Shown one piece after another: positions 1-11,006 of a DNA stretch of 64,000 nucleotides. Below the pieces are notes generated by a model that worked only from the letters and a program-made list of their open reading frames with translations, did no database searches and was not told the DNA's origin. Source of the DNA: Candidatus Eiseniibacteriota bacterium (lineage in GTDB: Bacteria; Eisenbacteria; RBG-16-71-46); the NCBI GenBank assembly GCA_041483195.1, contig JBGPFC010000007.1, positions 32,001-96,000 on the forward strand. Reading direction: 5' to 3'. Positions within the stretch are counted from its first letter, which is position 1. Each line of letters starts with the position of its first letter. Both the position numbers and the translations under genes were made by a program.

Positions 1-786
1 GGCGAAGCTGAGCGGCTGCCCGGAGCTGGTGGTGAAGAAGAGATACGAGAGCCCGGCGTGCTCGAACAGGTGCGGGGACTCGACGAGGTCGTTGTAGCTG
101 TACGCCGTATAGGTGATCCAGAGCGGGCCGAGATCGGTCCAGCGCGTGAAGTCGCCGTCTGAGGCCGCCACTGCGGCGACCATCGAGGCATGGTCGCTGT
201 CGGGCGCGGTGCTGTAGAGCATGAGCCAGCGCCCCGGCACGGATGGATCGGGCATGACGAATGGATCCCTGAAGGGCGCGCCCGAGGTGGTGTCGCACCA
301 GCACCACGGCACCCCGTCGCAACCGAGGACCGGCTGATCCATGCGATTCCACTGCACGAGATCGGTGGAGGTCGCGACGCCGATCCGCTGGTGGAGCCCG
401 AAGCTCCCGGGCCCGTCGGCGACCCCGGTGTAGAAGAGGTAGTACACACTGTCGCGCTCGACGATGCTGGGCGCCCACACGTGGCTGCTGTCCCATCCGC
501 TGTCGCTGACCGCCATGACCGGCTCGAGCTGGGTCCACTGGTAGAGGTCGTTCGACACCGCGTGGCCCAGATCACGCTCGGTCAGGTTCGAAGGCAGCGA
601 GGTGTTGTTGCGGATGTAGAACAGGTGGTACGTCCCGTCGCGCTTGACGAGCGTGAAATCCTTGGCTCGAATGGGATAGGGTGCCACCATCCACGACGCC
701 CACGAGGGGTCGGCGTTCAGAACGCCGAGCCAGCTCGCGACCATCGCGACCATGAGCCGGAGGCGGGGCGGGGAAGCCAGGTTCAT
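1..786 (-). CDS. Secreted glycoside hydrolase, GH32/GH43-like five-bladed beta-propeller (partial, runs off window start)
   Basis: Not in the ORF track; translated by hand from ATG at 786: MNLASPPRLRLMVAMVASWLGV...KDFTLVKRDGTYHLFYI...LGHAVSNDLYQW...VWAPSIV...YYLFYTG...FRDPFV...ESPHLF. Signal-like N-terminus, RDP motif and propeller repeats. Confidence 0.75.
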   Translation of the reverse strand, partial: MNLASPPRLRLMVAMVASWLGVLNADPSWASWMVAPYPIRAKDFTLVKRDGTYHLFYIRNNTSLPSNLTERDLGHAVSNDLYQWTQLEPVMAVSDSGWDSSHVWAPSIVERDSVYYLFYTGVADGPGSFGLHQRIGVATSTDLVQWNRMDQPVLGCDGVPWCWCDTTSGAPFRDPFVMPDPSVPGRWLMLYSTAPDSDHASMVAAVAASDGDFTRWTDLGPLWITYTAYSYNDLVESPHLFEHAGLSYLFFTTSSGQPLSFA

Positions 787-936
787 GTTGGCCGGACTTT
801 CGATCGAGCGTGGAGCGGGAACACAACCGGTACTGGGACCGGCGACCGGAGTATCGGCCGCCACTCGTCACCGAGTCAACGCATTTGCGCGCAACGCGCT
901 GTCAGGCAGCCTTCGACTCGCACGACAGGGGTGGGC

Positions 937-2880
937 GTGATCCAGCTGCAGAAACTCCGTTACTCGATCGGCGATCGGGTGCTCTTCGAGGACCTGGACT
1001 GGGTGCTCGCACCGGGCGACCGCGTGGCGCTGGTCGGGCCGAACGGCGCGGGCAAGACCACGCTCATCCGCGTGATGCTGGGCGAGTACCAGCCGGAATC
1101 GGGCGCGCGCGTGCTCGCGCGCGGCACGCGGCTCGGCTACCTGCCGCAGGAGGCGGCTGAGCGATTCGACGGCACGGTGCTCGACCGCGCGATGGAGGCG
1201 CATCGCCACCTGCTCGGCATGCGCGAAGAGCTCGACGCCCTCCACCAGCGGCTCTCCGGGATCCGCGCCGAGGACGCCGATCTCGAAGCGCTGCTCGAGC
1301 GCGCGGGCGAGCTGCAGCACCACCTCGAGCTCGGCGACGAGCACGCGCTCGAGCCCGAGGCGCGGCGCGTGCTGACCGGTCTCGGATTCTCGAGGCGCGA
1401 TCAGGACCGGCCGCTGGCGGAGTTCTCCGGCGGCTGGCGCATGCGCGCGGCGCTCGCCGCGCTGCTGCTCACCGACCCCACGCTGCTGTTTCTCGACGAG
1501 CCGACCAACCACCTCGATCTGCCCGCGATGGAGTGGCTCGAGGACTACCTCGAGGAATTTCACGGCGGGCTGGTGGTGGTCTCGCACGATCGCGTCTTCC
1601 TGGACCGCGTCGCGACCGAGGTCCGCGAGCTGGACCGCGGCACGCTCAGCGACTATCCCATGAAGTTCACGCAGTACCTGGAGGAGCGCGAGCTGCGCCG
1701 CGAGCGGCTCGAGGCGCAGAACGCGCAGGTCGAGAAGCGCATCGCCGAGCTGTCGCGCTTCGTCGAACGCTTCGGCGCGAAGAACACCAAGGCCGCGCAG
1801 GCCCAGAGCAAGCGCAAGATGATCGCGCGGCTCAAGACCGAGCGCGTGGTCATCCCGCACCGCGCGAAGAGCATCCGGTTTCACTTCCCCGACCCGCCGC
1901 ACGCCGGGCGCACCGTGGTCCGCCTCAAGGACGTGGCGTTCGGATACGGCGAGGCCGACGTGTTCGCGGGCGCGCGCCTCGAGATCGAACGCGGCGACAA
2001 GGTCGCGATCGTCGGCGCGAACGGCGCGGGCAAGACCACGCTGCTGCGCGTGATCGAGGGACAGCTCGAGCCCCGCGCCGGCGAGCGTGAGACCTATCCC
2101 CATACGAAGCTCGCCTACTTCGCGCAGCACGCCGCCGAGACCCTCGACGCCACCCAGACGGTGCTGGGCGCGGTCGAGGACGTGGCGCCCGCGGAGTGGC
2201 GGCCGCGGCTGCGGAGCCTGCTCGGCAACTTCCTGTTCTCGGGCGACGACGTGTTCAAGCTGTGCCGCGTGCTCTCGGGCGGCGAACGCCAGCGGGTCGC
2301 GCTCGCACGCATCCTGATGGCGCCCGCGAATCTCATCCTGCTCGACGAGCCCACCCACCACCTCGACCTGGCGGGCAAGGAAGTGCTCGAGGACGCTCTC
2401 GAGCAGTATCCGGGGGCGATCGTGGTCGTGACCCACGACCGCTCGCTGATGGCCCGGCTCGCGACCCGCATCATCGAGGTCAACGACGGGCGCGTCGTGC
2501 TCTATCCGGGCGGCTACGACGACTACGAATCGGCGCGGCTCGCGCGCGTGGCGGGCGCCGTCCCGCCGCGGGCGGACGCCACGCGCGAGCAGCCGCGGGC
2601 GGCCGTGAAGCCCGCGGCGCCCGCGACGCCCCCCCGGAAGCAGCCGGGCCGCGGGACGGAGCGCGCCGCCCGCGGTGGGCAGCCGAAACGCGACAAGGAG
2701 CTGCTGCGCATCGAGCAGGACATCGAGGCCCGCGAGGCGAAGCTTCGCGCGCTCGAGTCGCAGCTCGCCGATCCCGACATGTACCACGATGGCCCGCGCG
2801 CGAAACAGCTCGTGACCGAATACGAGCGACTGCGCGCCGAGCTGGACTCGCTGTGGGCCCGCATGGCGGAGCTGGGATAG
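937..2880 (+). CDS. ABC-F family ATP-binding protein (Uup/YheS-like)
   Basis: Two ABC domains (GPNGAGKT/FSGGW/LLFLDEPTNHLD and GANGAGKT/LSGGE/LLDEPTHHLD), no TM segments, C-terminal coiled coil. Start set at GTG 937, where homology begins. Confidence 0.92.
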   Translation: MIQLQKLRYSIGDRVLFEDLDWVLAPGDRVALVGPNGAGKTTLIRVMLGEYQPESGARVLARGTRLGYLPQEAAERFDGTVLDRAMEAHRHLLGMREELDALHQRLSGIRAEDADLEALLERAGELQHHLELGDEHALEPEARRVLTGLGFSRRDQDRPLAEFSGGWRMRAALAALLLTDPTLLFLDEPTNHLDLPAMEWLEDYLEEFHGGLVVVSHDRVFLDRVATEVRELDRGTLSDYPMKFTQYLEERELRRERLEAQNAQVEKRIAELSRFVERFGAKNTKAAQAQSKRKMIARLKTERVVIPHRAKSIRFHFPDPPHAGRTVVRLKDVAFGYGEADVFAGARLEIERGDKVAIVGANGAGKTTLLRVIEGQLEPRAGERETYPHTKLAYFAQHAAETLDATQTVLGAVEDVAPAEWRPRLRSLLGNFLFSGDDVFKLCRVLSGGERQRVALARILMAPANLILLDEPTHHLDLAGKEVLEDALEQYPGAIVVVTHDRSLMARLATRIIEVNDGRVVLYPGGYDDYESARLARVAGAVPPRADATREQPRAAVKPAAPATPPRKQPGRGTERAARGGQPKRDKELLRIEQDIEAREAKLRALESQLADPDMYHDGPRAKQLVTEYERLRAELDSLWARMAELG

Positions 2881-2886
2881 CGCCCT
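2879..2886 (+). repeat. Left target-site duplication AGCGCCCT
   Basis: Identical 8-mer immediately outside both TIRs. Confidence 0.9.
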
Positions 2887-2905
2887 GGTAGTGGTCTAGT
2901 TTGAA
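2887..2905 (+). repeat. Left terminal inverted repeat
   Basis: GGTAGTGGTCTAGTTTGAA; 16/16 and 18/19 match to the reverse complement of 5739-5757. Confidence 0.93.
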
Positions 2906-2952
2906 CACGCGGCCCCCTTCCCAAAACGGGCGTGACGTGCCACATTACGTGC

Positions 2953-3189
2953 ATGCCTGCCCGCGCAAGAAAACGCCCTCGCGATCCGAACCGGCTCGCC
3001 TTCCAAGTCGTTCAGGAAGCTACCAAGCAAACCCCAGTGGCCCCGGACACGAGAAATCCGGCCGCCGTGGCCTTGTCGAAACTCGGAGCCTCCAAGGGCG
3101 GGATGGCCCGCGCCGCGAGCCTGTCGGTCGCGCGGAGGCGGGCCATCGCCAAGAAGGCGGCTTGGTCGCGGTGGGGCAAGAAGAAGTAG
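2953..3189 (+). CDS. Small basic IS-associated protein (78 aa; KGG-like motif, putative nucleic-acid binding)
   Basis: MPARARKRPRDPNRLAFQVVQEAT...NPAAVALSKLGASKGGMARAASLS..RRRAIAKKAAWSRW; resembles small proteins I recall next to IS1-type transposases (often labelled histone H1-like or RNA-binding). Confidence 0.8.
   Translation: MPARARKRPRDPNRLAFQVVQEATKQTPVAPDTRNPAAVALSKLGASKGGMARAASLSVARRRAIAKKAAWSRWGKKK
2954..2971. promoter_or_regulatory. Palindromic operator-like motif, copy 1 (TGCCTGCCCGCGCAAGAA)
   Basis: 16/18 identical to the copy at 3656-3673; overlaps the start codon of the 78-aa gene. Confidence 0.55.
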
Positions 3190-3228
3190 GATGTGGCGCG
3201 GTTGAGAACCAATCGAAAGGGGAAAAGC

Positions 3229-3375
3229 ATGGCTAAGAACGAGAAAACCTCTTCGGAGGTTTCCAAGGCAGCCAGTGCCATTTTGCGCGCCCGCAACTCC
3301 ACCAAGAGGGTGAAGAGCGTGGCCGGTTCGGCACTCACCCAAGCCCCGGACAAGGGGAACAAGAAGAAGCCCTGA
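3229..3375 (+). CDS. Small Lys/Ser-rich hypothetical protein (48 aa)
   Basis: RBS AAAGGGGA before ATG 3229; MAKNEKTSSEVSKAASAILRARNSTKRVKSVAGSALTQ...; stop overlaps the next start (TGATG). Confidence 0.7.
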   Translation: MAKNEKTSSEVSKAASAILRARNSTKRVKSVAGSALTQAPDKGNKKKP

Positions 3376-3632
3376 TGCGGCTGGTGCTCGTGGAATGGCT
3401 GGATTCATTCGGTTGCTCGGCAACGTGGGAGCAGCTTGATGGCTGCTCCCCGCATCTTTTGACGTGTCGATCTGTCGGCTGGCTTATCCACGACGGCGAC
3501 GACTGCAAGGTGATTGTCCCGCACGTTTCGCAGCCCAATGAGGGGTGCGGGCAACAAGGCTGCGGAGACATGACGATTCCCACCCGCGCGATAGTCAGGA
3601 TGGCCGACCTGTCCGAGTCCTCGGCGGCCTAG
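3375..3632 (+). CDS. Small beta-rich hypothetical protein (85 aa, Cys-rich)
   Basis: Translationally coupled (TGATG); pattern VLVEWLDS...CRSVGWL...IP..AI like small phage/MGE proteins. Confidence 0.75.
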   Translation: MRLVLVEWLDSFGCSATWEQLDGCSPHLLTCRSVGWLIHDGDDCKVIVPHVSQPNEGCGQQGCGDMTIPTRAIVRMADLSESSAA

Positions 3633-3648
3633 CTCGATTCTTTCTTGC

Positions 3649-3677
3649 TTGACTTTGCCTGCCCGAGCAAGCATCAT
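3649..3677 (+). promoter_or_regulatory. Sigma70-like transposase promoter with palindromic operator copy 2 in the spacer
   Basis: TTGACT(3649-3654)-17 nt-CATCAT(3672-3677)-6 nt-ATG; TGCCTGCCCGAGCAAGCA (3656-3673) is 14/18 self-complementary. Confidence 0.65.
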
Positions 3678-3683
3678 GGCTAC

Positions 3684-4508
3684 ATGAACAGGTTGAGTGT
3701 TGAGGAGCAGGTTCGAATCGTGGCGGTGCTGGTCGAAGGCAACAGCCTTCGGGCAACGGCGCGAATCACCGGCTTTGCCCGCATGACGATTGAGAAGCTC
3801 CTGCGCGATCTCGGCTCGGCGTGCGCCGAGTATCAGGACGTGACGCTTCGCGGCCTGCCTTGCAAGCGCATTCAGTGCGATGAGATTTGGAGCTTCATCT
3901 ACGCGAAGCAGAAGAACCTGCCCGAGAAATTCGCCAAGGAGCCCGGCTACGGCGACACATGGACGTGGACGGCGATTTGTGCGGACACGAAGCTCGTTCC
4001 GTGCTGGCTGGTTGGCCCGAGAAACAAGCGCGCCGCTCGAGAATTCCTCTTCAACCTGTCGGTGCGGATGCGTGGCCGCTTTCAGTTGACTACTGACGGC
4101 CACACCGCCTACCCGGATGCCGTCGAGCGTGTCTTTGGCCATGAGATTGACTACGCGACGCTGACCAAGATTTTCGGGACTGACCCCCAGAACGAAGCCC
4201 GCTACAGCCCGGCGCACCTCACCGGCACGCAAGCCGCAATTATCAGCGGCGATCCGAACCGACGGCACATCTCCACAAGCTATGTCGAGCGGCAAAACCT
4301 GACCATGCGCATGAGCATGCGCCGGTTCACGAGGCTCAGCAATGGATTCAGCCGCAAGGTCGAGATGCACCAGCGTGCGATCGATCTCCACTTCATGCAT
4401 TACAACTTCTGCCGCATCCATCAGACGCTGCGCGTGACCCCGGCCATGGCGGCGGGCGTAACCAACCGGCTTTGGGATGTGGAAGACATCCTCGCCCTGC
4501 TCGACTAG
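3684..4508 (+). CDS. IS1-family DDE transposase (274 aa)
   Basis: N-terminal HTH (EGNSLRATARITG), catalytic CDEIWSF / TTDG / STSYVERQNLTMR and RRFTRLSNGFSRK motifs; single ORF with no frameshift and no zinc ribbon. Confidence 0.92.
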   Translation: MNRLSVEEQVRIVAVLVEGNSLRATARITGFARMTIEKLLRDLGSACAEYQDVTLRGLPCKRIQCDEIWSFIYAKQKNLPEKFAKEPGYGDTWTWTAICADTKLVPCWLVGPRNKRAAREFLFNLSVRMRGRFQLTTDGHTAYPDAVERVFGHEIDYATLTKIFGTDPQNEARYSPAHLTGTQAAIISGDPNRRHISTSYVERQNLTMRMSMRRFTRLSNGFSRKVEMHQRAIDLHFMHYNFCRIHQTLRVTPAMAAGVTNRLWDVEDILALLD

Positions 4509-4517
4509 GAGGAGCAC

Positions 4518-4760
4518 ATGAACAATCGCCAACGCCTTGCGTTTGCTCTCGCCTGCTGGATCGCGTGCGGGCTGATTCTGGCTCCCTGTGACCGGGCGAC
4601 CAGCCACTTTTTCAACCTCCCGGACGGCTACTATCCGAACGACATGGCGATGCTGCGATCCGGCTACGCGCCGATCGCCCGGACGGTGGATCTGGTGATC
4701 GCCGCGCTTCTCGGCGGAGCCGGGCTCACGGTGCTGCTCGGTTGGAAAAAATCGAACTGA
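4518..4760 (+). CDS. Small two-TM membrane protein (IS passenger, 80 aa)
   Basis: Strong RBS AGGAGGAG; two hydrophobic segments. Confidence 0.65.
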   Translation: MNNRQRLAFALACWIACGLILAPCDRATSHFFNLPDGYYPNDMAMLRSGYAPIARTVDLVIAALLGGAGLTVLLGWKKSN

Positions 4761-4769
4761 TCCACTAGC
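4751..4769 (+). repeat. Degenerate internal IS end-like sequence
   Basis: ATCGAACTGATCCACTAGC vs TTCAAACTAGACCACTACC (left TIR reverse complement): 13/19, conserving AACT-N3-CCACTA. Confidence 0.5.
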
Positions 4770-5619
4770 CACCTTTGACTCTTCTTTTCTCAAAGTATTT
4801 GGCCATTGTTTCTCTAGCCCCCCGCTCCCCTCTTTGAGCAGCCATCCGTTCCCGCCTATATAGTCGGTCGAGGTCCTTCACCATTGGTGAGTCCGGGCCG
4901 TCGAGCCCTCGATTTCCGTCGTGGCCGATAGAGAACACGTCGGTGGCCCGCCCGACACCAGGAGCGATCTCGCCGCGCTTCTTCGCGAAGAACACGGACA
5001 CAAGGGCGGCAGAGGCGGCCACTTCTCGCGTGTGGCCTTGGAGCATTAGGTACGAGTTCGCGTGCCAGCCGCCCGTTCCGATTGCCGCGAACCCAACCGA
5101 GTCCTCGCAACTGGGTGCGCCGCGCTTACCGATGAAGATGTGGGCACCAGTCGCGTCTACGCCGGCAATGATGCACCCGACTTCCAAGTCGTAGTCCTTG
5201 GCCGACTCGGCTAGACCACCAATCAGCATCTCGACAAGTCCAGCGCTCAAGTTCTGCTGCTGCTGGTTAAAACTCTTCCACGTGAGCCCGTACGGGCCGA
5301 GAATGTCTGCCTCGGCCTTTGCCCTGTAGGCTGCGGTGGCGAGTCGCCCATAGGATTCAGCTACCCACCCCACTTCTGGATCGCTTGCTTCGTCGCGAGT
5401 TGCGATCAGGCTCCGAAGCTGGCTGAAGATGCCGGACTGGATCGACACGTTCCCCGCAACCATTGCGACCAGCGATTGACCGAGCCATTCGAGTTTGGAG
5501 CGTCGAGGCTCGAACTCTATGACATCCGAGGTCAACATCTGATCGGAGGCACCTAGGACCCAGTCTTGGTATTTGGTTTGGCTGCCAAACCTGCACAGCG
5601 CTGCGACGCAGACCGTCAC
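4765..5619 (-). CDS. Proteasome beta-subunit-like Ntn hydrolase (IS passenger, 284 aa)
   Basis: RBS AAGGAAGG then GTG-ACG gives M-T-V-C-V-A-A (N-terminal Thr); ASDQMLT, SKL, IIAGVD..GAHIF, FAAIGTGG..A motifs of the proteasome/HslV fold. Confidence 0.75.
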   Translation of the reverse strand: MTVCVAALCRFGSQTKYQDWVLGASDQMLTSDVIEFEPRRSKLEWLGQSLVAMVAGNVSIQSGIFSQLRSLIATRDEASDPEVGWVAESYGRLATAAYRAKAEADILGPYGLTWKSFNQQQQNLSAGLVEMLIGGLAESAKDYDLEVGCIIAGVDATGAHIFIGKRGAPSCEDSVGFAAIGTGGWHANSYLMLQGHTREVAASAALVSVFFAKKRGEIAPGVGRATDVFSIGHDGNRGLDGPDSPMVKDLDRLYRRERMAAQRGERGARETMAKYFEKRRVKGG

Positions 5620-5709
5620 AACCGGACCCTTCCTTCGTGGCGGCGACAGCGTCCTGCGCGGTTTGCGCGACGGCCTCAGCCGCGGAAAGGGGCGAGCATA
5701 GTCCGTGCC

Positions 5710-5727
5710 TACGTGCCCGCGCAAGCA
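5710..5727. promoter_or_regulatory. Palindromic operator-like motif, copy 3 (TACGTGCCCGCGCAAGCA)
   Basis: 15/18 identical to copy 2; just inside the right TIR and upstream of the Ntn gene. Confidence 0.55.
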
Positions 5728-5738
5728 ATCGGGCTGAT

Positions 5739-5757
5739 TTGAAACTAGACCACTACC
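5739..5757 (-). repeat. Right terminal inverted repeat
   Basis: TTGAAACTAGACCACTACC. Confidence 0.93.
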
Positions 5758-5765
5758 AGCGCCCT
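5758..5765 (+). repeat. Right target-site duplication AGCGCCCT
   Basis: Matches 2879-2886. Confidence 0.9.
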
Positions 5766-5772
5766 CCCCGGA

Positions 5773-5801
5773 TTGACGCGCGTCTCCCGCCCCGCTAACG
5801 T
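5773..5801 (+). promoter_or_regulatory. Sigma70-like promoter of the BMC gene (leaderless-type)
   Basis: TTGACG-17-TAACGT-8 nt-ATG(5810), no SD. Confidence 0.6.
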
Positions 5802-5809
5802 GCCGCGGC

Positions 5810-6445
5810 ATGGCCGACGTCACGCTGCGCAGCTACATCTTCCTCGACAGCCTCCAGCCGCAGCTCGCGGCGTTCATCGGCACCACCGCCCGCGGGTTCC
5901 TGCCGGTGGCGGGTGACGCATCGATGCTGATCGAGACCGCGCCGGGCCTGATCATCAATCGGATCACCGACGTCGCGCTCAAGGCGACGCAGTGCACGCC
6001 CGCGATCATGGTGGTCGAGCGCGCGTTCGGGTTGCTCGAGATCCACCATCGCGACAAGGGGCAGGTGCAGCTCGGCGGGCAGGCGGTGCTCCAGTACCTC
6101 GGCATCGACGAGCACGACCGGATGAAGCCACGCGTGGTCTCGGACCAGGTGATCCGAGCGGTCGAGCCCTATCATGCGCAGGTCATCAACAAGACGCGAT
6201 ACGGCGACATGCTGATCGCCGGCGAGAGTCTGCTCATTCTCGAGACCGAGCCGGCGGGATACATCGCGTTCGGCGCGAACGAAGCGCTCAAGGCGGCGCG
6301 CGTGAAGCTGATCGACGCTTCGTTGTTCGGCGCCTACGGGCGGCTCTACCTCTCCGGCCCCGAGGCCCAGATCGACGCGGCACGCGACGCGGCGCTGCGC
6401 GGGCTCGGCACGGTCACGGGCCGGGAAGCGAAGGGCAGCGTCTAG
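5810..6445 (+). CDS. Bacterial microcompartment shell protein, tandem permuted BMC-T (CcmP/CsoS1D-like)
   Basis: [43 protein letters not shown]...[16 protein letters not shown] signatures. Confidence 0.92.
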
Positions 6446-8754: not shown

Positions 8755-9737
8755 GGCTTCCGCGATCCGCGATGGGCCGCGCCGGCCACTCGATGGGCCG
8801 CGCCGCGCGCGAGCGAGGCGACGGCGTGCGCGGAGACCGCGGCGCCGGACCTCGCCCCCTCGCCCAGATTCGCGAGCGTGCCCTCGCCGAGATACCGGCC
8901 GAAGAATGCGAGCACGCGCCGCTCGTACTCGGCACCGTGCAATCGCCACGCCTGGTTGTGACCCTCCGGCAATAGCCAGATCTCGTCCTTCGCGCCGGCC
9001 GCGCGCCAGAGATCCCGGGCCTGCTCCGGCGCGAAGCGATCGTCCCGCAGCGCGTGGATGAAGAGCAGCGGGCGGCTCCTCAGCGACTCGGCGGCCGCGA
9101 TCGCGTCGAGCGCCCCCGGATCGTATCCGGTCAGCACGCGGCCGCCCGCGCGCGCCAGCGCGGCCGCCGGCCAGCGGGGCACGTGGGCCCAGCGCTCGGT
9201 CGCGTCCTCGATCGCGCGCGCGCCGGTCGCGAACGGGCAGTCCGCGACCACGGCCGCGATCTCGGGATGGCGTGCGGCGAGCCACAGCGCCACGCTGCCA
9301 CCCAGCGATTCGCCGAGCACGCCGATGCGATCCCGCCGCAGCGCGGGATCGCGCTCCACCCATTCGAGCGTGGCTTCTGCGTCGATCGACTCGTAGTGGC
9401 CGAGGGTGGTGGGCTTGCGATCGTGCACGCGCGACGAGCGAAAATCCACGGTGACGACCCCGTAGCCCGCGCGCAGCAGGAACGCGGCATAGCGCCAGGC
9501 GCGGGTGTGGTCGCGGCCGTACCCGTGAAACAGGAGGACGACTTCGCGGCGTGTTCCCCCGAACACCCAGCCATCGATCGTGTCGTCTCCCACCGGGATC
9601 GACACGCGCCGCGCGGTGCGATCGAGGTCGACGGCGCCGCCGAGGTCTCGCGGCACGCCGGGATAGAGCGCGAGCCACGCCGATGCAGCTGCGAAGATCG
9701 CGAGCGCCGAGATCGCGAAGAACAGGAAGCGTTTCAT
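8751..9737 (-). CDS. Alpha/beta hydrolase, membrane-anchored
   Basis: N-terminal TM, LLFHGYG, GESLGG nucleophile elbow, DD and GHN catalytic residues. Confidence 0.85.
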   Translation of the reverse strand: MKRFLFFAISALAIFAAASAWLALYPGVPRDLGGAVDLDRTARRVSIPVGDDTIDGWVFGGTRREVVLLFHGYGRDHTRAWRYAAFLLRAGYGVVTVDFRSSRVHDRKPTTLGHYESIDAEATLEWVERDPALRRDRIGVLGESLGGSVALWLAARHPEIAAVVADCPFATGARAIEDATERWAHVPRWPAAALARAGGRVLTGYDPGALDAIAAAESLRSRPLLFIHALRDDRFAPEQARDLWRAAGAKDEIWLLPEGHNQAWRLHGAEYERRVLAFFGRYLGEGTLANLGEGARSGAAVSAHAVASLARGAAHRVAGAAHRGSRKP

Positions 9738-9769: not shown

Positions 9770-10912
9770 TCAGCGCGCGAGCGTGAGCCCGCGCGGCCCC
9801 ACGTATTCGGACTGGGGACGGATCAGATGGTCCTCTGCGTGCTGCTCGATCACGTGCGCGCACCAGCCGGCGACGCGCCCGCACGCGAACATCGCGACGA
9901 AGCTCCGCGGCTGGAGCCCGAGCGACTGCAGCACGAGCGCGGTGTAGAACTCGACGTTGGTCTTGAGATTGCGGCCGGGCTTGTGCTCCTCGAGCACGCG
10001 CAGCGTGGTCTGCTCGACGGCGCGGGCGAGATCGAACAGCTTGCGATCGTGCAGCACGGCGTTGCCCATCTCCTCCGCCGTCTTGCTCAGCACCTCGGCG
10101 CGCGGATCGCGCACCTTGTACACGCGGTGCCCGAATCCCATGATGCGCCTCCCGGCGGCGAGCTCCTTCTTGATCCATGCCTCCGCGTTGTCCGCGCTGC
10201 CGATCTCGACCAGCATGTCGAGCACCGGGCCCGGGGCACCACCGTGCAGCGGGCCCTTCAGCGCGCCCACCGCGCCGGTCACCGCGCTCACCATGTCGGA
10301 GCGCGTGCTGGCGATGACGCGGGCGGCGAAGGTGGAAGCGTTCATGCCGTGGTCGATCACCGTGACCCAGTAGGTGTCGAGCGCGCTGGCCGCGAGCGGA
10401 TCGGGCTCGCTGCCGTGCACCATGTAGAGATAGTTCGCGGCGAGGCCCAGATCGGCGCGGGGCGCGATCGGCTCCTTCCCCGCCGCGATGCGGGTGTGCG
10501 CAGCAACGATCGTCGGGAATCGCGCCGCCAGCATCATGGCCCGCGCGAGATCGGCCTCGCGCGCGATGTCGTCAGGATGCGCGATGTCCAGCGACAGCGT
10601 CGCGCAGGCCATGCGCAGCGCGTCGATCGGCGAGGCCTTGGCGGCCGATCGGATCACCTCGAGCGTGGTCGCGGGCAGGGCGCGCAGCGCGGCCATCTCG
10701 GCACGCAGGCCCGCAAGCTGCTCGCGCCCCGGCAGCTCGCCTTTCCACAACAGGTAGGCCGCTTGCTCGAAGCTCACCCGGCCCGCCAGCTCCTTGAGCT
10801 CGTAGCCGCCGATGATGAGGACGCCGCCGACGCCGTCCACGTGGCTGAGGCGGGTCTGCGCCGCGACGACGCCGTCGAGTCCGCGGGGCGCCGGGGTGGT
10901 GGTGCCTGCCAT
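9770..10912 (-). CDS. Citrate synthase / 2-methylcitrate synthase
   Basis: DHGMNASTF, GPLHGGA, IMGFGHRVYKVRDPR, TNVEFY. Confidence 0.93.
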   Translation of the reverse strand: MAGTTTPAPRGLDGVVAAQTRLSHVDGVGGVLIIGGYELKELAGRVSFEQAAYLLWKGELPGREQLAGLRAEMAALRALPATTLEVIRSAAKASPIDALRMACATLSLDIAHPDDIAREADLARAMMLAARFPTIVAAHTRIAAGKEPIAPRADLGLAANYLYMVHGSEPDPLAASALDTYWVTVIDHGMNASTFAARVIASTRSDMVSAVTGAVGALKGPLHGGAPGPVLDMLVEIGSADNAEAWIKKELAAGRRIMGFGHRVYKVRDPRAEVLSKTAEEMGNAVLHDRKLFDLARAVEQTTLRVLEEHKPGRNLKTNVEFYTALVLQSLGLQPRSFVAMFACGRVAGWCAHVIEQHAEDHLIRPQSEYVGPRGLTLAR

Positions 10913-11006
10913 GCATCGCTCCTTTCGTGGCGGGATCGGGAAACGGATCGAACGCGACTATCGCATCGCACGGGCGCGGCGGGCAACCGCACCCCGGGCC
11001 GCGCGT

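Follow-up and report, generated by a model that had tools for sequence, protein, structure and literature searches.

What is a proteasome-like hydrolase doing inside an insertion sequence? The question is raised by a gene in the window studied here (the whole 64-kb stretch of DNA that was analysed, from a Candidatus Eiseniibacteriota bacterium; all coordinates are window positions). The gene lies on the minus strand at 4765..5619, convergent with a transposase gene, and encodes a 284-residue protein that resembles the β subunit of the 20S proteasome, an N-terminal nucleophile (Ntn) hydrolase whose threonine (Thr1) directly follows the start codon. Both genes belong to an IS1-like insertion sequence (IS) of 2,871 bp, which occupies 2887..5757. 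We hold this anatomy with high confidence, namely the gene, its fold, catalytic residues and start codon, the ends of the element, its recent insertion and the linkage of the enzyme family to transposases. For the locus as a whole we lean towards a recent IS1-like element with an ATP-independent Thr1 peptidase that serves the element; the service itself is put forward tentatively.

A preliminary description of the locus, which had regarded the gene as transposon cargo, understated the case, as both ends of the element and its empty site in relatives can be read. A repeat search of the window returned one outstanding inverted pair: the 19-bp left inverted repeat (IR-L; GGTAGTGGTCTAGTTTGAA, 2887..2905, plus strand, junction read directly) and the right one (IR-R; 5739..5757, minus strand), the reverse complement of which, GGTAGTGGTCTAGTTTCAA, matches IR-L at 18 of 19 positions. 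On either side lies an identical copy of an 8-bp target-site duplication, AGCGCCCT, at 2879..2886 on the left, where the junction was read directly and where the duplication takes in the final two bases of the TAG that ends an ABC-F gene (190..2880), and at 5758..5765 on the right, where it was aligned with the empty sites of two relatives, G003 and G006. The element has the terminal inverted repeats (IRs) and a target duplication within the 8–9 bp typical of the IS1 family. Its DDE transposase, with an N-terminal helix–turn–helix, is encoded at 3645..4508 on the plus strand (287 residues from TTG 3645, or 274 from ATG 3684). It matches PF03400 (DDE_Tnp_IS1; 33.2 bits, cut-off 24.1), HTH_38 and the transposase family phrog_720, and clusters with nine other transposases adjoining members of the hydrolase family. 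We use the label 'IS1-like' because the NCBIfam profile transpos_IS1 is matched only in part and below its cut-off (E = 5e-15, 55.9 bits versus 100). The hydrolase gene starts 120 bp inside IR-R.

The element was inserted recently, just after the ABC-F stop codon. It is present as a single copy in the 4.17-Mb assembly, and the 20 nearest genomes all lack it. The end of the ABC-F gene and the downstream gene are 58–118 bp apart in G003 (a member of the same genus), G006, G010 and G002, and alignment shows an uninterrupted intergenic site in the relatives and an intact ABC-F stop. The GC content is 0.60–0.62 in most bins from about 3000 to 5500 and 0.65 in the right-end bin, compared with about 0.70 in most neighbouring bins. 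Contigs from four other sediment-metagenome runs, possibly from one campaign, bridge the junctions without differences (X2, X3 and X4 on the left; X2, X3 and X5 on the right), so that the insertion is real in the population and is not an assembly artefact. Separately, one contig of run X3 joins 2537 to 5809, skipping 3,271 bases, with 36 letters on its shorter side and unknown letters between; it may be the empty-site allele of a relative and is too weak to use.

Where does the protein begin? The preliminary description had read a Shine–Dalgarno (SD) sequence, a GTG and an ACG codon at the start, and the letters agree: the start is GTG 5619-5617, followed by ACG (Thr) at 5616-5614, the stop is TAG 4767-4765, and the SD-like purine run GAAGGAAGGG (5627..5636, minus strand) lies 7 nt upstream of the GTG. 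The gene model in the protein database, P0003, is the identical 284-residue form (100% identity). The ORF (open reading frame) does not arise by chance, as it has 36 relatives at E ≤ 1e-3 and thousands of representative clusters in a profile search (see below). The same description gave the span as 4765..5724 and suggested a basic propeptide; the frame is indeed open upstream of GTG 5619, past an in-frame TTG (5724) and as far as GTG 5823. A precursor starting at TTG 5724 and cleaving itself before the Thr would account for this open frame and its basic in-frame translation, as well as for the N-terminal extensions in some database gene models of relatives, but it is barely credible given the codon that precedes Thr. 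Among the 69 of 80 genome loci (defined below) whose alignment extends to the N-terminus, this codon is ATG in 35, GTG in 24, TTG in eight, CTG in one and another codon in one (L010, with a degenerate N-terminus). Thr comes next in 68 of the 69, and because ATG, GTG or TTG stands there in 67 we place the start of translation at this codon. An in-frame stop lies 0–8 codons upstream of the start in 21 loci and directly abuts the ATG in two (L066 and L069), and 59 loci have an SD-like motif, loosely defined, 4–16 nt upstream. Database proteins agree: without exception they have M, V or L in front of Thr, both in gene models with an N-terminal extension and in those lacking one. Translated in frame, GAAGGAAGGG yields the 'RRKG' of the supposed propeptide; the conserved 'RKG'-like residues upstream of Thr are thus the SD run read as protein, and not a propeptide. 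Proteasomal precursors moreover have Gly at position −1. Finally, propeptides are confined to proteasome β and HslV according to the survey by Fuchs, Alva and Lupas (Fuchs et al., 2021; PMC8665760). Of the span first proposed, then, the ORF 4765..5619 stands, and 5620-5724 is 5′ untranslated, non-coding DNA.

Methionine aminopeptidase is known for its specificity for small penultimate residues, and by this specificity it would be expected to remove the initiator Met and to free the amino group of Thr1 with no propeptide involved, as in HslV.

We then asked what the protein is. It has no Pfam match at E ≤ 0.1, PF00227 included; the NCBIfam profile arc_protsome_B (TIGR03634) gives E = 0.0035 and 17 bits against a cut-off of 224, and a phmmer search of the PDB finds 20S β at E = 0.002. 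A word-indexed search returned 36 proteins at E ≤ 1e-3, seven of which have a precomputed PF00227 match. The profile and alignment built from 33 of them (A1) matches 20S β in the PDB at E = 5.8e-6, its PDB matches comprising both β and α subunits, and aligns the Asp, the Lys and the Gly of 'AGD' of the family with D17, K33 and G47 of PDB entry 8oix chain L (8oix_L). The AlphaFold2 model obtained with A1 as input (pLDDT 95.3, pTM 0.90) has the predicted four-layer αββα sandwich of the proteasome-like (MEROPS T1-type) Ntn hydrolases. Every top Foldseek match of this model is a 20S proteasome subunit (E of about 5e-10), and the best structural alignment by VIA is with the Archaeoglobus β subunit 1j2q_H (Z = 24.7, root-mean-square deviation 2.2 Å, 198 of 202 residues aligned), which puts residue 2 of the model on the catalytic Thr (residue 1) of that chain. 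The proteasome-β fold with Thr directly after the start, as proposed in the preliminary description, is therefore borne out by the model, by Foldseek, by VIA and by the start-codon survey. Its label 'HslV-like' is not, since the nearest structures and sequences are 20S β and α subunits; HslV is absent among the 60 best profile matches and the 50 structural matches listed.

As judged from the alignment, the enzyme has the N-terminal Thr nucleophile of the T1-type enzymes, granted removal of the Met, and equivalents of their Asp17 (D26), Lys33 (K42, 16 residues past the Asp) and oxyanion Gly47 (G56). The motifs first pointed out in the sequence, GASDQM (with D26), K42 and AAIGTGG (181-183), are all present. 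Conservation was measured on 259 sequences aligned to the A1 model, comprising 180 database proteins and 79 locus translations that partly overlap. At filled positions, Thr is found in 221 of 222, Asp in 233/234, Lys in 245/245 and Gly in 238/247, so that the conservation of Thr1 in homologues, which had been left to be checked, is confirmed. On the other hand, the Ser129/Asp166/Ser169 shell, a marker of active 20S β subunits and not of the whole superfamily, is replaced in the family (256 sequences): the position equivalent to Ser129, in G-x-G, is variable (S 76, I 65, A 54 and V 30 of 256), EIAPGVG (217-223) occupies the site of the proteasomal D166/S169 loop, and the family has invariants of its own, H186 (252/256), K213 (256/256), E217-x-APGVG (E 255/256, P 251/256) and D227. 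The suggestion that APGVG in place of this loop marks a distinct family thus finds support. So does the long helical insert noticed in the sequence: in the model it comprises helices 83-110, 114-119 and 126-146, between the core helix 58-74 and the strand 147-155, and adds roughly 50–60 residues to the 20S β fold. The model ends in a C-terminal helix of 39 residues (245-283). A three-copy oligomer prediction scored 0.29 against a mark of 0.42 and carries no weight either way.

One family member departs from this pattern. The locus L037 (gene at about 9911-10894), beside an intact IS1595 transposase with IRs, reads Val-Ala-Val-Cys where others read Met/Val-Thr-Val-Cys; it is presumably the sole Ala in the Thr column, either a natural Thr1-to-Ala variant or a miscall.

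Has such a family been seen before? The preliminary description was unaware of a family of this type catalogued in 2021, when 22 new families of proteasome homologues were defined by sequence analysis (Fuchs et al., 2021; PMC8665760). The sections consulted report no experiments on the new families; the authors found no genomic context that hints at function, and the stem 'transpos' does not occur in the text. In the same survey, the family PHI (representative WP_012956871.1) has the tightest sequence links to the proteasome clusters, α and β, a long insertion after H1/H2 that is expected to interfere with ring assembly, none between H3 and H4, no propeptide and, in some members, a predicted C-terminal coiled coil; it is sporadic in bacteria and archaea, and hardly any of its members are close to one another (53 sequences at nr90, 52 at nr70). 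The family studied here likewise has a helical insertion at H1/H2, none between H3 and H4 (helices 184-193 and 202-216 are adjacent in the model), a C-terminal helix, no propeptide, no known AAA+ partner, a sporadic distribution and its closest links to 20S α and β. We consider it probable that the two are the same family, the match being one of description and not of sequence. The present family, with 1,338 clusters at E ≤ 1e-30, is by far the larger one and is linked to IS1-like and IS1595 transposases. PMI-3 and PMI-4 of the same survey differ from it by combining the H1/H2 insertion with one between H3 and H4. The family has thus probably been catalogued already, purely in silico, whereas its life as insertion-sequence cargo appears to be undescribed. 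Full-text searches, with most subscription journals outside their coverage, returned no description of an IS-borne proteasome homologue. Among the works listed as citing Fuchs et al. (2021), none concerns IS carriage by title or abstract, and one of them, a 2026 review, cites it in the reference list only. As a lead for the PHI identity and nothing further, archaea dominate one nearest Atlas cluster, Methanobacteriota being the most frequent.

We may wonder at this stage whether carriage by an insertion sequence is an accident of this genome or a habit of the family. An exhaustive search of 1.84 billion representatives with the A1 profile returned 4,658, 3,346 and 1,338 clusters at E ≤ 1e-3, 1e-10 and 1e-30, respectively. 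In a collection of one genome per species (185,579 genomes), a pattern-based search found at least 88 stretches that encode a relative; 80 of the 88 were fetched, all from metagenome-assembled genomes (MAGs), and these are the genome loci used throughout. The loci span many bacterial phyla and, among archaea, Aenigmatarchaeota, Micrarchaeota, Bathyarchaeota and Nitrosopumilaceae. Within the phylum of the host, the family profile finds the gene in one of 206 genomes of varying completeness, that of the window. Neither the 72,556 plasmid records nor the 50,697 phage records gave a tblastn match; viral contigs hold eight copies. Among the loci, fragments and truncated copies are frequent.

For the 80 loci with a tblastn match (79 public loci and the window's own copy, L001), ORFs up to 7 kb from the family gene were clustered all-against-all. 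The conserved neighbours are transposases, confirmed by Pfam, of the IS1595 family (PF12762 with PF12760) and of the IS1-like type (PF03400); besides these, ABC ATPases, response regulators, histidine kinases and resolvases each occur in 3–7 loci at variable distance, and further clusters are antisense ORFs of the hydrolase gene itself. By hidden Markov model search, a transposase lies within 2.5 kb in 24 public loci; of the 52 loci flanked by 1.5 kb or more on each side, 22 have one. Three remnants added by tblastn bring the adjacency to 27 of 80 genome loci (16 IS1595 and 11 IS1-like). In a metagenome collection, used as a replication, 401 stretches encode relatives, and a transposase is found 99–1,343 bp away in 33 of the 80 fetched and in 14 of the 28 with long flanks, some loci being near-duplicates; on the viral contigs an IS1595 transposase lies directly downstream in two of eight. 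IRs of 21–46 matched bases enclose both genes in L050, L055, L059, L035, L047, L079, L029, L037, L076 and L031, and shorter ones do so in L007, L064 and L025. The IS1-like elements of L064 and L079 have the ends GGTAGTGG...AGTTTG in common with the window element. With either transposase family, the hydrolase gene is placed 45–130 bp inside an IR; the neighbourhoods are otherwise mutually unrelated, and other mobile-element genes are frequent in them. The enzyme is a bona fide cargo of the elements of both transposase families.

Some further loci deserve mention in their own right. L026 (Binatia) and L027 (Pirellulales), MAGs of one study, have identical family proteins with the same upstream patatin-like gene and 834-residue ORF, which points either to a very recent inter-phylum transfer or to one contig binned twice. 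In L043 (an Aenigmatarchaeota MAG), an inverted repeat of 22/25 (9498-9522 and 10970-10994) surrounds only the family gene, in a stretch of about 1.5 kb that lacks a transposase; this may be a non-autonomous element, the match being at the edge of the chance range. In L012, on a 3.2-kb contig, an inverted repeat of 118/121 nt (131-251 and 2924-3044) surrounds a large serine recombinase gene and the family gene; this is a cassette (invertible or mobile) or else a fold-back of the assembly.

Does the enzyme have partners? The absence of an α subunit or AAA ATPase nearby, remarked on from the start, holds for the element and its surroundings (Pfam scan) and for 33 neighbourhoods annotated with Pfam (the first 150 of 395 neighbour ORFs, loci L002–L034). 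The host genome (96.8% complete) gives no PF00227 match at E ≤ 0.01, and its best match to the HslU profile TIGR00390, at 94.8 bits, stays below the curated cut-off of 362. The hydrolase has no match in PHROG, and neither it nor the other ORFs of the element has one in PADLOC.

These data place the enzyme among known systems as follows. With 20S β (1j2q_H and 1pma) it shares the αββα fold and the equivalents of Thr1, Asp17, Lys33 and Gly47; unlike 20S β, it lacks an α subunit, a propeptide and a PF00227 match, and it has the helical insertion and is carried by an IS. Identity with a canonical 20S β subunit was rejected on the missing PF00227 matches of the protein and the genome and on the low TIGR03634 score (17 bits versus 224). 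Like HslV it is a stand-alone bacterial gene for a Thr1 protease with Thr directly after the initiator Met. HslV differs in having no H1/H2 insertion and a short pore loop, according to Fuchs et al. (2021; PMC8665760), and an identity with HslV was discarded as the genome has no partner HslU above the cut-off and the element no AAA+ gene. Connectase, in the same source, lacks H1/H2 and bears an insertion of two helices between strands S3 and S4 (PMC8665760); it is ruled out here by helices 58-74 and 83-110 at the H1/H2 position and by residues 29-45, which hold only short strands.

As for the element, its plan is a familiar one. Insertion sequences of the IS1 and IS1595 families with passenger genes were reportedly described as 'transporter IS' by Siguier, Gagnevin and Chandler in 2009. 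As in those, there is a single DDE transposase, short terminal IRs, an 8-bp target duplication and extra genes inside the IRs; unlike them, one passenger family recurs here in two transposase families and across many phyla. TnpB offers an analogy of logic only: it is an accessory gene of two transposase families, in IS200/IS605 and IS607 elements, and is often found solo, as the present gene is, while the proteins are unrelated and their chemistry is different. Any effect of the proteasome-like protein on transposition is hypothetical.

What might such an enzyme do for an insertion sequence? In the established mechanism of the proteasome, catalysis depends on Thr1, Lys and Asp. By analogy, Thr1 would here be the nucleophile and Lys the proton acceptor, oriented by Asp, and the backbone NH of the conserved Gly would form the oxyanion hole. 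The enzyme would most likely need neither ATP nor a dedicated unfoldase to cleave peptide (amide) bonds. The helical insertion after H1/H2 and the long C-terminal helix probably control substrate access or assembly, and the insertion, together with the altered second shell, suggests a gated or selective access of substrates and not an open chamber. The enzyme would act for the element, for example in turnover or processing of the transposase or of the transposition complex, and not as a housekeeping protease. We prefer this reading because, in hosts very distant from one another, one passenger recurs at a constant position next to transposases of two families. Its most specific form, a dedicated accessory factor of IS1/IS1595-superfamily transposition that turns over the transposase or disassembles the transposition complex, is doubtful enough to be offered as a suggestion; host ClpX for phage Mu and Lon for IS903 have comparable roles.

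Several observations weigh against this reading. No IS1/IS1595 transposase is found in 53 of 80 genome loci, 47 of 80 metagenome loci and six of eight viral loci, and with about half or more of the loci lacking one, the gene can persist without it. As loci without a transposase reach best IRs of 17–22 matches, a range that covers pairs with 20 matches or fewer, only the longer IR pairs are firm. On a quick IQ-TREE tree of the enzyme (66 of 80 rows, 14 fragments under 230 residues being left out), the type of transposase is scattered, with 20 label changes compared with 19.4 after shuffling; L059 (IS1595) and L060 (IS1-like) are sisters with 97% support. The pairwise identities of enzymes and transposases are uncorrelated (Spearman 0.17 for 54 pairs and −0.01 for 15 pairs), any signal being limited to the two closest pairs. 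Long-term co-inheritance as one unit is therefore not shown; the gene may have been exchanged or captured repeatedly, or it may be an accessory that persists after its transposase is lost, and neither would prove a role of the enzyme in transposition. Repeated capture of a gene useful to the host would give the same pattern. With a second shell unlike that of active proteasomes, the chemistry could also differ. Finally, for every member of the family we infer the biochemistry, that is, the removal of Met, the peptidase activity and the oligomeric state.

The capture of a host-useful gene leads to a rather unlikely alternative, in which the enzyme, a general protease independent of ATP, removes unfolded or damaged proteins like an uncapped 20S, spreads by helping hosts without HslV or 20S, and uses insertion sequences as vehicles of repeated capture. 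The host genome, with neither a PF00227 match nor an HslU above cut-off, suits it, as do the scattered transposase types, the uncorrelated identities and the many loci without a transposase, and ATP-independent clearance is discussed as a possible role for the new homologues by Fuchs et al. (2021; PMC8665760). Such a gene should, however, be retained vertically, whereas it occurs in one of 206 genomes of the phylum and in at least 88 matches among 185,579 species genomes, often as fragments or truncated copies. A constant position 45–130 bp inside an IR with two transposase families would be unusual for opportunistic cargo, and the neighbour clustering shows no other recurrent cargo gene in these elements.

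The nature of the reaction may also be questioned. The insertion (about 83-146) lies where ring assembly should clash in PHI (PMC8665760), and the second-shell residues are unlike those of proteasomes; both would suit a monomer or dimer whose site is gated by the insertion and which acts on one defined substrate, by cleavage or by transpeptidation, and connectase shows that the fold supports ligation (PMC7980362). We regard a connectase-like processing enzyme or ligase as unlikely, since the core helices H1 and H2 that connectase lacks are present here, the insertion is at a different site from its S3/S4 insertion (as described in PMC8665760), and no conserved candidate substrate gene other than the transposase lies nearby. 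Less likely still, indeed very improbable, is a component of a conflict system, a defence, anti-defence or addiction factor on mobile DNA that cleaves a phage or host target. The neighbourhoods are rich in resolvase, integrases, SieB, Gp49-type toxin–antitoxin, Mrr, patatin and terminase genes, and the eight copies on viral contigs point the same way, but neither the enzyme nor the other ORFs of the element match PADLOC, no partner gene recurs besides the transposases, and the phage and plasmid records searched (50,697 and 72,556) hold no match.

Proteasome relatives are usually regarded as housekeeping machines that are inherited vertically. What is probably one of the most proteasome-like of the families catalogued in 2021 now has a genomic context, that of a recurrent passenger of two related insertion-sequence families, present here as a fresh insertion with intact ends, and the function of an orphan proteasome homologue becomes a testable question. 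Mobility, instead of ancient descent, would explain the odd distribution of the family, which bears on reconstructions of proteasome evolution that use such families. Were the enzyme an accessory factor of transposition, it would be the first transposon-encoded protease of the proteasome family, its sporadic and diverse spread over bacteria and archaea would be explained and solo copies would represent, on the model of TnpB, either remnants or forms that have been domesticated. If it proves substrate-specific, it could be of practical interest, as is connectase.

The rest of the element consists of small ORFs on the plus strand and a repeated motif. Left of the transposase gene are a putative ORF of 85 residues with a basic C-terminus (2932..3189; weak match to phrog_2384, E = 3e-4; no Pfam family), one of 60 residues, or 48 from ATG 3230 (3193..3375; phrog_5079, of unknown function, E = 8.8e-11), and one of 85 residues (3375..3632; weak match to phrog_25889, E = 7e-4; no Pfam family). 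A putative hydrophobic ORF of 80 residues, with two apolar stretches by eye and no Pfam, PADLOC or PHROG match, lies between the transposase and hydrolase genes (4518..4760). The phrog_5079 match makes it probable that at least one of these four passengers is a real mobile-element gene. A fifth candidate, a 462-residue ORF on the minus strand (3405..4793), antisense to the transposase gene and overlapping the end of the hydrolase gene, was rejected: it has no family match and looks like an artefact of high GC content; it groups with ORFs that lie antisense to other IS1-like transposases. Three copies of the 12-nt motif TGCCCGMGCAAG are present in the window, against 0.01 expected from shuffles, each on the plus strand and inside the element: near the left end (2958..2969), at the start or promoter-like site of the transposase gene (3660..3671) and in the upstream region of the hydrolase gene (5714..5725). 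The motif is part of the longer direct repeats D1 and D2 and may be an operator or a transposase-binding site.

In the four metagenome runs, the summed contig depth over conserved parts of the transposase gene (3831-3951 and 4194-4435) is 3–6 times that of the rest of the element, with many loose ends, so that related IS1-like transposases from other organisms are common in these communities; over the cargo gene there is no such excess. A genome of the same order has a 67%-identical transposase stretch (G014:C31:2482-3122) without the hydrolase gene, on which no claim rests. To the right of the insertion, the gene at 5810-6445 (plus strand) has a weak match to the BMC (microcompartment shell) domain (24.1 bits, cut-off 24.5), and as the element sits between the ABC-F stop codon and the upstream region of this gene, it could affect its expression.

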